A stretch of DNA of 64,000 nucleotides from Candidatus Poribacteria bacterium (GCA_965205065.1 CBDBFT010000001.1:5102569-5166568); one strand, 5' to 3'; shown: positions 22,011 to 26,961, counted from the first letter of the stretch. Translations and numbers: made by a program. The notes: a model not told the origin generated them from the letters alone.

Positions 22011-22817
22011 TTAATCTATAATGATTGAATTGCCTTTATGTAAAAAGAGGGATTCCTTGTTTGGGTCATGTGATGGTATCTCATGGACAACATTGTCATC
22101 GGTGATTGAAAATCCTGGAACTCGCTGAGAAGGACTTGGATTAATATACATAAGCATCCACCCGCTTGGATTGTCTGGGGGTCGGTGAAATATTAATCCA
22201 CCACCATTGACTTGCATTTCTCTGAGTGTGCTTAACGTATTGCTGTATCTCTCCTGCATGTTTTCTGGCATTAAGGTGGTAGATTCTTCCATCAATTCAA
22301 TGAGACCTGCAAGCGAGGCAACACCTGATTCCATCAGATCGACGATCGTACTACTTGGATGAACATCTTCTGTCGTTTCAGAATCCGGTTCTGTCAGCTC
22401 TGTTAACGCTTTTTTCTCTTCCTCTTCCAAATCAAGACTTTCAATGAGTTTTGTCAATTCTTCCTCATCAAGTTCGTCAAGGAAATCAAATAAGTCATAA
22501 AAATTGGCGTCTTTCACATCCTCATCTTCATTGTCAGACACATCGCTTTCTTTATTTTCAATGTCTGACTCCTGTGGATTAGTTTTTTCAACATTATCCT
22601 CAGTTTCGGACGAGGTTAATGTCGATTCTTGTTTAAGAGAATTATCAGGTTTTTTCTTTTCTGGCTGCTGTGTTTGTGAATTCTGATCAGGATATTCTCC
22701 GAGCGATTTTTTGAATCTGAGAACATCCCATTGATTGAATAAGAATATCGCTACACATAGCACGACTGTCAAGCTACATGCTATTGCCAAATGTTTCCAA
22801 CTGTATTGTTTGATCAT
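22011..22817 (-). CDS. hypothetical single-pass membrane protein with long acidic low-complexity region
   Basis: An AAGAGG ribosome-binding site, then an N-terminal TM (LAIACSLTVVLCVAIFLF) and Glu/Asp-rich tracts. It is the last gene of the ECF-sigma/permease gene string. Confidence 0.5.
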   Translation of the reverse strand: MIKQYSWKHLAIACSLTVVLCVAIFLFNQWDVLRFKKSLGEYPDQNSQTQQPEKKKPDNSLKQESTLTSSETEDNVEKTNPQESDIENKESDVSDNEDEDVKDANFYDLFDFLDELDEEELTKLIESLDLEEEEKKALTELTEPDSETTEDVHPSSTIVDLMESGVASLAGLIELMEESTTLMPENMQERYSNTLSTLREMQVNGGGLIFHRPPDNPSGWMLMYINPSPSQRVPGFSITDDNVVHEIPSHDPNKESLFLHKGNSIIID

Positions 22818-22828
22818 TGTTATACCTC

Positions 22829-22872
22829 TTAAGAGTAGATTATTTTTATTTTAAGAGTAGATTATTTTTATT
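22829..22872. repeat. perfect 22-bp x2 tandem repeat (ttaagagtagattatttttatt) spanning the permease stop codon
   Basis: Read directly from the sequence; the second copy contains the TAA of the FtsX gene. Confidence 0.7.
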
Positions 22873-24142: not shown

Positions 24143-24165
24143 TTTTTACATCTATGAGGTAGATA

Positions 24166-26961
24166 CTATGACTCGGCACGTTCAAGACGAAGCACACCAC
24201 GTTGTTCCGTGCCAACGAAGAAGGTGTCTCCATCAATGACAAGGGAAGTTATCGTATCTGGAATTTGAGGGACAATCTGTTTCCAATTTCCTTTTCTTTC
24301 TTCAAGTTGAAAGATACCGTCATCGTTCGCTCCGTAAACTGTATCTTCTGCAATTGCTAACGTCTTTATGGTTAGCTCCTTCCCCTTTTCATCGGTGACT
24401 GTATGCCAAACAACACCATCTGTTGAATTGAAAACTCCTTTGTCGGTTGCCACATAAACCGTTGTATCTGTAAGGACAATCTGATTAAGCTGTTCTACCG
24501 TCTGTGGTAGGTTTGATGTGACATCTTTCCAACTATAACCGTCATCAAGCGATTGAAAGAGTTGTCCATCGCGTTTACCAACGTATACTTTCTCACCTGA
24601 TGAAGCGATTTTAAAACTTCTCGCCATGTTTTCACGGGTGAGTTCACCAGATTCTTCAACTCCAGTATCAATCCACCAAGAGTCGCCTGGTTTCCATTGG
24701 TAGAGCTTATAGTTGTACTCCATGTAGAAAGTTTCACCACTGACAGCAAAGTTACCATACAAACCTTCTAACATCAATCCATAAGCGAGTTGATAATCAT
24801 CATGCATGTGTTTCAGTTGATTCAAAAAGACTTCTGCCCCAAACTTAGAATCCGATAGAATTTCCTTCTTTGTTAATGTATCTGGTTCGCTCCATGGGTG
24901 CGTAGAAGAAGTGATGAGTATACGTTGCCCTGGAATCCTTTCACCTTCAAATGCAAAAGTAACATTTCCAAACACATGCCACATGAGTGTTCCTGAATCT
25001 AATGAAGGAATCTTTTCATCATCTGGTATATAGCCGTCAAGTGGAAGCAAATAGGATTCATCTGGAGCAATACGATAATATGCAGTTTCATTATTCCGAC
25101 GTATGACTTTTGCATATAGATATCCATCGTATTTGGCAATTTGAACAATTTTCGGTGTACATTCTCTAAATTTAGTTTTAACACCTAAATCTGGAATTGT
25201 CTCAGTTCCTCTTTTTAAGAATATTTCAACAGCTTCCCACGAAGCACCTTCATCTAATGATTTGACCAGACTTCCAGACACCATCGCATATAGGGTAGTG
25301 GACTTCTTATCAGCATTATCTGCCTTGATATTGATTAGATTATCAACACGACATTCAAACCTTGTGTTGAATCTATGCCATGTTCTTCCACCATCTGTAG
25401 AACGATGAATGCCAGTGATTCCCCCGGTATAGAAGGTGTTTTCATTTAAGGCTGTAGAGCAGTTAACACTAAACTGGGTAGGTGTGATGCCAGCGGATTC
25501 TTCGGTTTTCCAAGTTTTCCCAGCATCGACCGTTCGAGCCACAACACCTTCTTCTCCACATAAGAGTAAAAGAGAGTTCCCAGATGCAAGAAGTTTTATA
25601 TCGGGTAATGTCTTCAATATCTCACGAACATCTGTTGGTGTAATATCTGTCCACGAATTTCCATTATCTGTTGAGCAGAAAACCCACCAGGATTGTCTTC
25701 CTTCTCTCCCCAACGCAAGATAATTCTCTGAAGGTGTACCATCACCTTCCAAGATATTTACAGTAACTGCTACATAAACCTTGTTGTCACTGACTACCAA
25801 CGAAGAGACGCCAACAGGCGCGTCAACTGGTAACTGTAGATGTTCCCATTTTCTTTCATTATAACGGTATACACCCATTGATGTTCCGACAAACAGGGTG
25901 TTTTGACATATCCTCAATGATTTAATGCCAGCTTTCTCTTTCAAAGTGCTTTCTAATCCGTTGTTCATCTTTTTCCATGACCTACCACCATCATCGGATC
26001 GAAAAACACCTTCATTAAGGGTTAAGTAAACAGTGTCATCTGTGATAAGCAATTCTTTGACATGTCCTTTTGGACAAGGACCGATAGAATCCCAAGTTTT
26101 ACCACCATCGTTTGATGCAAACAATTCGTGTGATGGGATAATATAAAGTGTTCCATTATGTTCAGCAATTGGAATACTTCCCTCAGTTTTTTCAGGAAAG
26201 AATTCTGAGTTAACAGGTTGCCATTCGTCTTTTTCAGGGGTTAATTTGTAGATGTTCTTATACCCCATCACTGCATAGATGGTTCCATCCGATGTTTTAG
26301 ATAGTGTACCAACAGAAGCGGCAACACCCGGTTCATTCATCTGAATCCATTGCATAATATTCTCAGTAAGGTTTTCTGGCAATTCAAATCCACCTAATGT
26401 TTCGCGTACCATTAATTCTTCCTCCTTTAATCGTTTTCTTGCGCGATGCAGTCTACTCTTAATAGTATTCAGCGGTACATCCAGAAACTCACTTATATCT
26501 TCACACCGCATTTCACCGAGATAGTGAAGTGTTATGACAGTATATTCGGTTTCTGGTAGTTTACTTAGAAGTTGTTTTACGACTTCGTGCCGTTTTTCAT
26601 CAGCCTGCATTTCACTCTGTTTATCAAGATGTTGTTTATAATAGAGTTTTTCTATCTCTGCTTCAGACAGAGTTTCAAGTGATACAATAGGCAGCTCCGT
26701 CTTTCTAAAAGAAGCCAAACAACAGTTCTTTGCTATTGCATATACCCACGCAGCGAAACGGTTCGGATCTCTGAGTGTCCATAGTCTTTGGTAAACCTGA
26801 AGAAAGGTGTCCTGTGTGATCTCTTCTGCAAGATGGAAGTCACCCAACTTCCGCCATGCGAAAGCGTGTATCTGCTTCTGATATTTTTCTACCAAAACTG
26901 TAAACGCGCTCTGATCGCCGCCCAATGTTTGCTGGATTAATGTAACATCGTTGTTTTTCAT
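24166..26961 (-). CDS. ECF (sigma-70 family) sigma factor fused to a C-terminal BNR/Asp-box beta-propeller extension
   Basis: Residues 1-190 carry sigma region 2 (FLQVYQRLWTLRDPNRFAAWVYAIAKN) and region 4 (LHYLGEMRCEDISEFLDVPLNTIKSRLHRARKRL). There are more than 8 SxDxGxTW motifs (SNDGGKTW, SDDGGRSW, STDGGRTW, TDNGNSW, VDAGKTW ...). It is a single uninterrupted 931-aa ORF. Confidence 0.7.
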   Translation of the reverse strand: MKNNDVTLIQQTLGGDQSAFTVLVEKYQKQIHAFAWRKLGDFHLAEEITQDTFLQVYQRLWTLRDPNRFAAWVYAIAKNCCLASFRKTELPIVSLETLSEAEIEKLYYKQHLDKQSEMQADEKRHEVVKQLLSKLPETEYTVITLHYLGEMRCEDISEFLDVPLNTIKSRLHRARKRLKEEELMVRETLGGFELPENLTENIMQWIQMNEPGVAASVGTLSKTSDGTIYAVMGYKNIYKLTPEKDEWQPVNSEFFPEKTEGSIPIAEHNGTLYIIPSHELFASNDGGKTWDSIGPCPKGHVKELLITDDTVYLTLNEGVFRSDDGGRSWKKMNNGLESTLKEKAGIKSLRICQNTLFVGTSMGVYRYNERKWEHLQLPVDAPVGVSSLVVSDNKVYVAVTVNILEGDGTPSENYLALGREGRQSWWVFCSTDNGNSWTDITPTDVREILKTLPDIKLLASGNSLLLLCGEEGVVARTVDAGKTWKTEESAGITPTQFSVNCSTALNENTFYTGGITGIHRSTDGGRTWHRFNTRFECRVDNLINIKADNADKKSTTLYAMVSGSLVKSLDEGASWEAVEIFLKRGTETIPDLGVKTKFRECTPKIVQIAKYDGYLYAKVIRRNNETAYYRIAPDESYLLPLDGYIPDDEKIPSLDSGTLMWHVFGNVTFAFEGERIPGQRILITSSTHPWSEPDTLTKKEILSDSKFGAEVFLNQLKHMHDDYQLAYGLMLEGLYGNFAVSGETFYMEYNYKLYQWKPGDSWWIDTGVEESGELTRENMARSFKIASSGEKVYVGKRDGQLFQSLDDGYSWKDVTSNLPQTVEQLNQIVLTDTTVYVATDKGVFNSTDGVVWHTVTDEKGKELTIKTLAIAEDTVYGANDDGIFQLEERKGNWKQIVPQIPDTITSLVIDGDTFFVGTEQRGVLRLERAES

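Follow-up and report, generated by a model that had tools for sequence, protein, structure and literature searches.

A poribacterial ECF sigma factor joined directly to a BNR double propeller: a candidate soluble one-component regulator from a largely membrane-tethered family

How might a sigma factor be controlled when it carries a propeller-type domain of about 715 residues and has no recognisable anti-sigma gene nearby? The question is raised by a gene in a 64,000-nucleotide stretch of DNA from Candidatus Poribacteria bacterium (GCA_965205065.1 CBDBFT010000001.1:5102569-5166568), the whole of which is referred to here as the window. Poribacteria are dominant uncultured sponge symbionts known for the degradation of sulfated glycans. 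At positions 24166-26961 on the minus strand the window contains a single uninterrupted open reading frame (ORF), stop codon included, encoding 931 residues: regions 2 and 4 of an extracytoplasmic function (ECF) sigma factor (residues 1-185), a 30-residue junction and a BNR/Asp-box domain of about 715 residues. Two further ORFs follow on the same strand, one for a permease and one for an acidic membrane protein, at spacings of 23 nt (sigma-permease) and 50 nt (permease-acidic). The GC content of the region, about 41%, is unremarkable.

Assignment of the N-terminal part is based on profile matches. Region 2 (residues 23-88; 26698-26895, minus strand) matched Pfam Sigma70_r2 with 49.4 bits against a cut-off of 24 (E 4e-13), region 4 (residues 127-178; 26428-26583, minus strand) matched Sigma70_r4_2 with 50.4 bits against 25.7 (E 1.7e-13), and the NCBIfam model of the ECF superfamily, TIGR02937, scored 83.4 bits against a cut-off of 42.9. 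By these Pfam and TIGR02937 scores, the predicted protein is an ECF (group 4) member of the sigma-70 family. It fell below the NCBIfam equivalog cut-offs for SigW (NF007223, 112.7 against 209) and RpoE (TIGR02939, 85.6 against 236). The closest solved sigma factor by sequence is B. subtilis SigW (5wuq, E 1e-22), with sigma E also among the best matches.

The C-terminal three quarters of the protein matched the Pfam families Sortilin-Vps10 (58.7, cut-off 33), BNR (35.3, cut-off 27) and PSII_BNR (30.5, cut-off 27). An AlphaFold run with 59 clade members gave a mean predicted local distance difference test (pLDDT) score of 71, with many ten-residue blocks of the propeller at 80-94. The strand pattern of this model predicts about 14 blades of four strands each, which would form two 7-bladed propellers. 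On the basis of the AlphaFold model and Foldseek, the double propeller spans residues 216-931 (24169-26316, minus strand), interrupted by a helical insert at about residues 657-734, of which residues 666-707 have a pLDDT below 50. The Pfam matches and the ~14-blade model together identify the C-terminal part as a BNR/Asp-box propeller. The original prediction, made from the DNA sequence alone, had proposed that an ECF sigma factor is fused directly to a BNR domain the size of a double propeller; the 931-residue ORF, the Pfam and NCBIfam scores and the homologs described below all bear this out.

In the junction (residues 186-215; 26317-26406, minus strand) an LPENLTENIMQ helix and WIQMNEPGVAASVGTL are directly joined, as judged by alignment with paralogs that carry a transmembrane (TM) segment. 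Hydropathy analysis found no TM segment in the window protein, the highest 19-residue Kyte-Doolittle mean being 1.26 over the whole protein and 0.65 near the junction. A signal peptide is likewise absent, and Pfam detected in the protein no zf-HC2 or anti-sigma domain and no SnoaL, TPR or WD40 domain (the SnoaL and TPR scan was run at E <= 0.1). The proposed lack of both a TM segment and a separate anti-sigma gene agrees with the hydropathy maximum and with the absence of a recognisable anti-sigma gene near the fusion gene. The accompanying list of known ECF extensions (SnoaL, TPR, zinc finger) was incomplete, as WD40 propellers are known in ECF57 (PMC8999054, PMC8567305).

Is the fusion real beyond this one genome? 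The window protein was searched against 5.8 billion proteins, which yielded more than 120 full-length homologs; the figures that follow are from the 120 matches listed. All 120 are 896-954 residues long and contain both sigma and BNR-type domains, with identities of 59-92% over 96-100% of the query; the named homologs are annotated 'sigma-70 family RNA polymerase sigma factor [Candidatus Poribacteria bacterium]'. In GTDB species genomes, at least 554 matches were found and confirmed by tblastn, of which the 80 kept were all from Poribacteria or unnamed metagenome-assembled genomes (MAGs). Counts at the level of loci are based on 77 related loci, labelled L001-L077. Among orthologs the synteny is kept, the gene lying downstream of a sulfatase gene and a MobA-like gene, and the C-terminal extension was found in every ortholog. 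Forty-one intact members of the clade to which the window gene belongs come from independent MAGs and complete chromosomes. A sequencing frameshift, which could have merged a sigma factor with a separate BNR protein, was looked for and is absent, the ORF being unbroken and all 120 listed homologs being of like length; an assembly or frameshift artefact is ruled out by these lengths, the intact clade members and the ratios of nonsynonymous to synonymous substitution (dN/dS) given below.

In L003, two TM-less genes of subgroup A (see below) stand in tandem (L003:1239-4043 and 4336-7113); their products share 72% and 73% identity with the window protein, and each gene has a TGCAACC promoter of its own. 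In L029 a change of frame at about residue 640 breaks the orthologous sigma-propeller gene (L029:8001-10813), and its FtsX neighbour (L029:12089-12594) is in fragments, which suggests that the pair was lost jointly.

To place the window gene within its wider family, ORFs were called in the 77 loci and screened with its sigma and propeller parts. Among the sigma-BNR fusions recovered, 91 have a strongly hydrophobic segment right after the sigma domain and 46 lack one; a further 38 ORFs carry this sigma domain but gave no BNR match at E 1e-10. Twenty-three of these 38 are at least 880 residues long and have a TM-like segment followed by another C-terminal domain; the rest are short, cut at locus ends, or ordinary solo ECF genes. 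Five of the C-terminal domains in sigma-TM, BNR-negative ORFs were tested. Three are WD40 double propellers in array members that share the sigma domain and TM linker (L039:3600-7421, L044:10915-14841 and L016:14336-17260), and the other two, also in array members, had no Pfam match (L046:11310-14657 and L050:4914-7826). Paralogs of the window gene at 30-40% identity are numerous in the related loci and often form head-to-tail arrays, the chromosomal segment OZ244821.1, 3,894,179-3,937,280 (L046/L039/L050) holding 11 consecutive sigma-TM-ectodomain genes in which BNR and other C-terminal domains are mixed. Arrays of three to six such genes were also seen in L047, L048, L065, L069 and L072. With the propeller alone as query, an exhaustive HMMER search returned 224 cluster representatives at E <= 1e-30; 42 of the best 150 carry this sigma domain, mostly in proteins of 965-1045 residues with the propeller starting at about residue 315.

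The linker of the TM-type proteins follows the pattern FQLPxxLTENIMxEIxxLKPxxPxxxKPLVPW, about 20 hydrophobic residues, then GxxNQYLxRFQKPYSF(D/E)AxSExT(I/V)E(I/L)VD...QWIQxxGPEGG, and the maximum 19-residue hydropathy of these paralogs is 1.8-2.5. As read from these sequences, the usual form of the family is a sigma factor, a short LTENIM helix, one predicted TM segment, a juxtamembrane linker of about 90 residues and a propeller (BNR or WD40) outside the cell membrane. Region 4 and the TM segment are separated by about 40 residues forming one helix, a stretch too small to hold a class I anti-sigma domain, and the TM-type linkers gave no zf-HC2 or anti-sigma match. Because most paralogs are of the sigma-TM-propeller type, the propeller most likely started as an extracytoplasmic sensor. 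The TM-less layout is thus real for the window gene, and is at the same time an exception within its family.

How did the exception arise? Alignment of the TM-less proteins with their paralogs revealed one clean gap of about 116 residues, present in all TM-less members. The join reads LTENIMQ|WIQxNEPG, and the missing block corresponds to the TM segment and the juxtamembrane linker. In a neighbour-joining tree of sigma domains the 41 TM-less genes form one clade with two subgroups: subgroup A, which includes the window gene and adjoins the MobA and sulfatase genes, and subgroup B, whose products are about 910 residues long and about 53% identical to those of subgroup A. Midpoint rooting of this tree was uninformative, and two 'solo' outgroup genes proved to be genes cut off at locus ends. 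For the propellers, a tree was built with secreted stand-alone propellers of Poribacteria as its root; these share the family's W-x-x-x-x-GP-x-GG start, which follows a signal-like N-terminus. In this tree the TM-less clade is nested among the TM types. The TM-linker module is common to BNR, WD40 and other ectodomains, so parsimony favours loss. From these comparisons, an origin of the TM-less state through deletion has good support, short of proof.

If the propeller moved from one side of the membrane to the other, its composition might be expected to record the change. Exported domains are generally depleted in cysteine. The propellers of the TM-less proteins contain 1.01 cysteines per 100 residues versus 0.16 in the TM types, an approximately sixfold contrast, whereas the difference between their sigma domains is much smaller (1.33 versus 0.69). 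That the TM-less propeller is not depleted in cysteine fits a cytoplasmic location, and the contrast as a whole appears to be an independent sign of a long stay in different compartments.

A further line of evidence comes from the region upstream of the gene, where an ECF-type -35 element (AAC) had been predicted ahead of position 26961. Such an element, TGCAACC, is present at 27017-27023 (minus strand) and is conserved in 42 of 42 TM-less genes, 61-66 nt upstream of the ATG, one of them having it at 169 nt, possibly owing to the ORF-start call. A -10-like element, ACATC, lies at 26997-27001 (minus strand), 16 nt past the AAC of the -35; its place is given by the alignment, with a predicted transcription start. 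The consensus for the TM-less genes is TGCAACC-N16/17-nnATC/TGTC. At the -10 position, subgroup A has GTATC, GCATC or ACATC, subgroup B has CTGTC and the TM-type paralogs have GCGTC. Twenty-eight of the latter have the same -35 in the arrangement GAATTATGCAACC...GCGTCA, 72-79 nt upstream. The flanks of the promoter elements differ between groups, and the alignments suggest that the subgroups share a common -35 and have distinct -10 elements. The SigW promoter is TGAAAC-N16-CGTA, and ECF promoters are generally laid out as an AAC, a spacer of about 16 nt and a C/G-T-C element, a layout like that of the putative sigma-propeller promoter. The site at 27017-27023 is the sole intergenic TGCAACC of the window in a suitable orientation and context, and no further suitable copy was found upstream of the permease gene or any other gene of the window. 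One candidate for a second promoter, a TGCAACC near 45570, lacks a -10 element and sits upstream of lepB, and was rejected. The conserved ECF-type promoter supports positive autoregulation of the sigma gene.

Considering these observations together, we favour, with somewhat better than even confidence, the reading that the window gene encodes an autoregulated, soluble one-component ECF sigma factor whose formerly periplasmic propeller now serves as a cytoplasmic regulatory module. The sigma factor would transcribe its own gene and, in this genome, also that of the permease and probably that of the acidic protein. Its TM-type parents may sense something outside the cell, possibly a glycan, and would be held inactive at the membrane until cleaved; the TM-type sigma domains could be freed by proteolysis, as for IutY and as proposed for ECF52/53 (PMC8999054). 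Intramembrane proteolysis cannot apply to the window protein, since it has no TM segment. Here the propeller would instead gate the sigma domain via the conserved junction helix on binding a cytoplasmic ligand or partner, and a clade-specific cysteine pair (C80/81 in sigma region 2 and C153 in region 4) perhaps helps the gating.

Several points weigh against this reading. The activity of the sigma factor, its autoregulation and the role of the propeller are all things that we infer from sequence. In the AlphaFold model the pLDDT is low for the sigma domain (~60) and the junction (<50), and no confident contact between sigma domain and propeller is seen. Conservation of the promoter motif is partly due to orthology, and only some genomes have the FtsX-type permease and acidic genes beside the sigma gene. 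Rooting the sigma tree on distant solo ECFs (27% identity) placed the root beside the TM-less clade; this root is ambiguous, so the choice between deletion and insertion depends on the propeller tree and parsimony. Finally, the sigma domain of the window gene is nearest to that of L026 (95% amino acid identity, dS 0.30) and its first propeller to that of L001 (89% identity, dS 0.34), the reciprocal dS values for the swapped partners (sigma domain with L001, propeller with L026) being 1.07 and 1.49. Such a mosaic points to allelic recombination that has moved the sigma domain and the propeller independently, which counts against their tight co-evolution. Whether the extension is conserved and co-varies with the sigma domain had been proposed as a check: it is conserved in all orthologs, but the mosaic dS pattern speaks against tight co-evolution.

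The separate recombination of the two parts, the lack of a confident sigma-propeller interface in AlphaFold and the strong putative autoregulatory promoter would also suit a different account, in which control lies in transcription and turnover only and the propeller, after loss of the TM segment, is passive or a scaffold for folding, stability or localisation. We consider this account unlikely in view of the selection acting on the gene. When its codons were compared with those of eight orthologs, the window gene gave a dN/dS of 0.14-0.22 for the whole gene, 0.05-0.12 for the sigma domain, 0.14-0.28 for parts of the propeller and 0.00-0.14 for the 30-residue junction, the lowest of all segments; the junction alignment contains many invariant or almost invariant columns. 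By these estimates all segments are under purifying selection, strongest at the junction. Values well below 1 argue that the propeller is not decaying, and the minimum at the junction argues that this segment is functionally important. A passive appendage that large would be expected to decay or disappear, but here about 715 residues have stayed under purifying selection, at a dN/dS of 0.15-0.27, in 41 genes of two subgroups that are only ~53% identical, and the segment under most constraint is the one that links propeller to sigma domain.

The cysteines of the sigma domain raise the question of whether the main switch could be a thiol or metal bridge between Cys80/81 of region 2 and Cys153 of region 4, with the propeller secondary. 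Cys153 is present in 41 of 41 members of the TM-less clade and in 13 of 81 TM-type paralogs. A region 2 cysteine at position 80 or 81 is found family-wide; within the TM-less clade C80 occurs in 34 of 41 and C81 in 22 of 41 members, and the window protein has C80/C81 together with C153. There is a precedent in ECF57, where two conserved cysteines are proposed to link regions 2 and 4 (PMC8999054). However, there are two cysteines only, no further metal-binding motif accompanies them, and the pLDDT of the sigma domain is about 60. A bridge as the main switch therefore seems improbable to us, and in any case it would be compatible with gating by the propeller and not exclusive of it.

Could the C-terminal domain be an enzyme? 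A Foldseek search of the PDB returned GH74 xyloglucanases as the top structural matches (2cn3, 6p2m and 5fkq; E 1e-19 to 1e-18), and the NCBIfam model 'F510_1955 family glycosylhydrolase' gave a partial match, which would suit a GH74-like or sialidase-like glycoside hydrolase whose catalysis is coupled to transcription. Sequence identity to the GH74 structures is 12-15%, however, at TM-scores of 0.36-0.45, and the NCBIfam match, at 115.9, falls short of its cut-off (175). Scoring almost equally, close behind GH74, are the non-enzymatic periplasmic double-propeller sensors BT4673 and BT4663 of Bacteroides hybrid two-component systems (3ott, 4a2l), and the window protein has neither the signal peptide nor the TM segment that a secreted enzyme would be expected to show. 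We regard a catalytic role as very improbable. That the gene is a functionless, decaying relic or artefact of a TM-type paralog, as the disrupted copy and fragmented FtsX gene of L029 might suggest, is scarcely credible and is refuted for the window gene by its unbroken ORF, the 120 listed homologs of like length, the 41 intact members, dN/dS far below 1 and the conserved promoter.

What might the sigma factor transcribe besides its own gene? The adjacent gene (22868-24142, minus strand) encodes a protein of 424 residues with four TM segments and a periplasmic core domain, matching MacB_PCD (PF12704, 139.1 bits) and FtsX (PF02687, 68.7 bits). From these matches it is a MacB/FtsX-type ABC permease with a MacB core and a C-terminal FtsX domain, and it is 80-96% identical in seven intact related loci. 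No ORF with a Walker A motif and an LSGGQ signature, as expected of an ABC ATPase, was found beside the permease in the window or in the seven related loci, so that a partner ATPase at the locus was rejected across eight genomes; the only ABC ATPase signature of the window is at about 54.2-54.5 kb. The predicted FtsX permease lacking its ATPase is therefore confirmed by its domain matches and by these eight genomes. A search for a promoter upstream of 24142 had also been proposed, but no separate one was found in a gap of just 23 nt; with so short a gap and no promoter of its own, the permease gene would be co-transcribed with the sigma gene. FtsX genes lie 17-41 nt downstream of the sigma gene in L006, L013, L022 and L077 as well (23 nt in the window). 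Of about 31 loci with a TM-less sigma gene, about 9 have an FtsX gene adjoining it, the sigma gene being from either subgroup; no TM-type gene has such an FtsX neighbour.

The last gene of the string (22011-22817, minus strand) encodes an acidic single-pass membrane protein of 268 residues with no Pfam family. Its description as an acidic TM protein holds: a TM segment is predicted at residues 9-27, 34% of residues 60-180 are aspartate or glutamate, and the isoelectric point is 4.27. We considered the possibility that this protein is an anti-sigma factor and rejected it, since the eight residues ahead of its TM segment leave no space for a cytoplasmic anti-sigma domain; the protein is also absent from most orthologous loci. 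Elsewhere in the 77 loci the gene was found only in L003 and L026, in the order sigma-acidic-FtsX. The proposal that sigma factor, permease and acidic protein form an operon can thus be kept as a plausible transcription unit in this genome, but there is no conserved three-gene operon.

A perfect tandem repeat of 22 bp had been noted at the junction of the permease and acidic genes, and Tandem Repeats Finder confirmed it at 22829-22872, over the permease stop codon (period 22, 2.0 copies, 100% match). Each repeat unit is the acidic gene's 5' leader: a single copy, AAAAACTACTCTTAAGAGGTATAACAATG, precedes the acidic gene in L026, and a close variant does so in L003. From this comparison, the acidic gene of the window has been relocated behind the permease gene, with 22 bp of its leader duplicated. 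Given duplication of the leader and movement of the gene, the repeat is a scar of rearrangement or slippage, and its interpretation as a regulatory array was rejected. A perfect short tandem duplication, AATTTGTATAACTCTACAGAA x2, is also present directly upstream of the FtsX start in L001 (L001:11530-11585), and small duplications of this kind seem to be a recurring feature of gene junctions in these genomes. Window positions 21522-22010, downstream of the acidic gene, contain four copies of a unit of about 29 nt, ACTATACACnTTTCGCCCCnCTGnGGCT, and a 24-nt near-perfect hairpin, TAAATTGACGCTTATGGTG.... Related elements, similar to repetitive extragenic palindromic sequences, occur in the sigma-FtsX gap of L001 and in the sigma-acidic gaps of L003 and L026.

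On the other side of the sigma gene, between the MobA-like gene and the sigma promoter, the plus strand carries a hicA-like/hicB-like toxin-antitoxin pair, as judged by eye from the translations (27183-27699). Elsewhere among the orthologous loci, only 150-600 nt separate the end of the MobA-like gene from the sigma gene downstream, and given this short distance the pair looks like a genome-specific insertion. Adjoining the sulfatase gene is a gene (29853-33728, minus strand) for a protein of 1291 residues, 91% identical in L026, with Reg_prop repeats, a Y_Y_Y domain and a C-terminal SpoIIE/PP2C phosphatase domain, resembling a hybrid two-component sensor with a phosphatase output. Further away, a 696-residue BNR/PSII_BNR (Ycf48-like) propeller without a sigma domain is encoded at 35096-37186 (minus strand); phmmer at E 1e-3 detected no kinship between it and the sigma-fused propeller.

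The data indicate a large, unreported family of signalling genes in Poribacteria. Its fold and its neighbours, the sulfatase and the Reg_prop/Y_Y_Y-PP2C sensor, suggest a link to glycan sensing. Put more broadly and more tentatively, as a picture that we think possible yet doubtful in its entirety, Poribacteria would use membrane-tethered ECF 'receptors' that lack anti-sigma domains and carry swappable BNR, WD40 or other ectodomains, in arrays of at least 10; the window gene would represent a switch of compartment through a single clean deletion, its glycan-sensor-like double propeller, once periplasmic, long kept as an input domain for an intracellular ligand and a MacB-type permease as its target. 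The family offers a natural matched pair, tethered and soluble forms that differ by a 116-residue block, with a promoter motif recognisable in each. With such a pair it becomes testable whether tethering alone inactivates a sigma factor that has no anti-sigma domain, whether a sigma factor can work with a 715-residue propeller attached, and what the propeller binds. We know of no experimental model for the propeller extensions of ECF57.

ECFs with fused extensions are already known; what this locus adds is a BNR double propeller, a large family often arranged in tandem arrays, and a membrane tether cleanly lost in the clade of the window gene. Nineteen ECF groups have been described with C-terminal extensions, including SnoaL, TPR, Cys-rich, DUF1835 and multi-TM types, in a paper whose main text mentions neither BNR, propellers nor Poribacteria (PMC7826278). 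Planctomycetal ECFs have very large, variable extensions obtained by gene capture (PMC7671368). In the literature searched, no paper joins ECF extensions with BNR domains or Poribacteria with BNR domains, and the papers that name both Poribacteria and sigma factors do not describe the sigma-propeller family.

How, then, does the window protein compare with known systems? Its propeller resembles GH74 and the Bacteroides hybrid two-component sensors BT4663 and BT4673 in having tandem 7-bladed propellers, and it shares with these sensors a big propeller tied directly to transcription output. The sensors differ in having Reg_prop/Y_Y_Y repeats, a histidine kinase and an AraC-type output, GH74 members differ in being secreted enzymes, and identity to either is 10-15%. 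ECF41/56 (SnoaL-like) and ECF42 (TPR) are likewise cytoplasmic, lack an anti-sigma factor and carry a fused C-terminal domain to which control of the sigma factor is attributed; their extensions, however, are 100-200 residues long with unrelated folds, whereas the extension here is about 745 residues and apparently comes from an exported sensor. The sigma/anti-sigma hybrids IutY (ECF243), SCO4117 (ECF52), ECF53 and ECF48 resemble the TM-type paralogs, which also consist of a cytoplasmic sigma factor, a TM segment and an extracytoplasmic sensor and are plausibly released by regulated proteolysis (PMC8999054). Unlike those hybrids, the poribacterial family shows no detected anti-sigma domain, and the window protein has no TM segment and only 30 residues between region 4 and the propeller. 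The closest known counterpart is ECF57 (formerly ECF01-Gob) of the Planctomycetes, which has a WD40-like extension (PMC8999054) and occurs in 5.3 copies per planctomycetal genome (PMC7826278). Compared by description, the window protein differs in that its propeller is BNR/Asp-box and GH74-like and not WD40, in its poribacterial origin, and in belonging to a clade without the TM segment of its paralogs. Common to both are a core of regions 2 and 4 with a very large beta-propeller, many paralogs and no anti-sigma gene; cysteines in both sigma regions (here C80/81 and C153, matched by domain location only); and, in the sister genes of the poribacterial arrays, WD40 double propellers.

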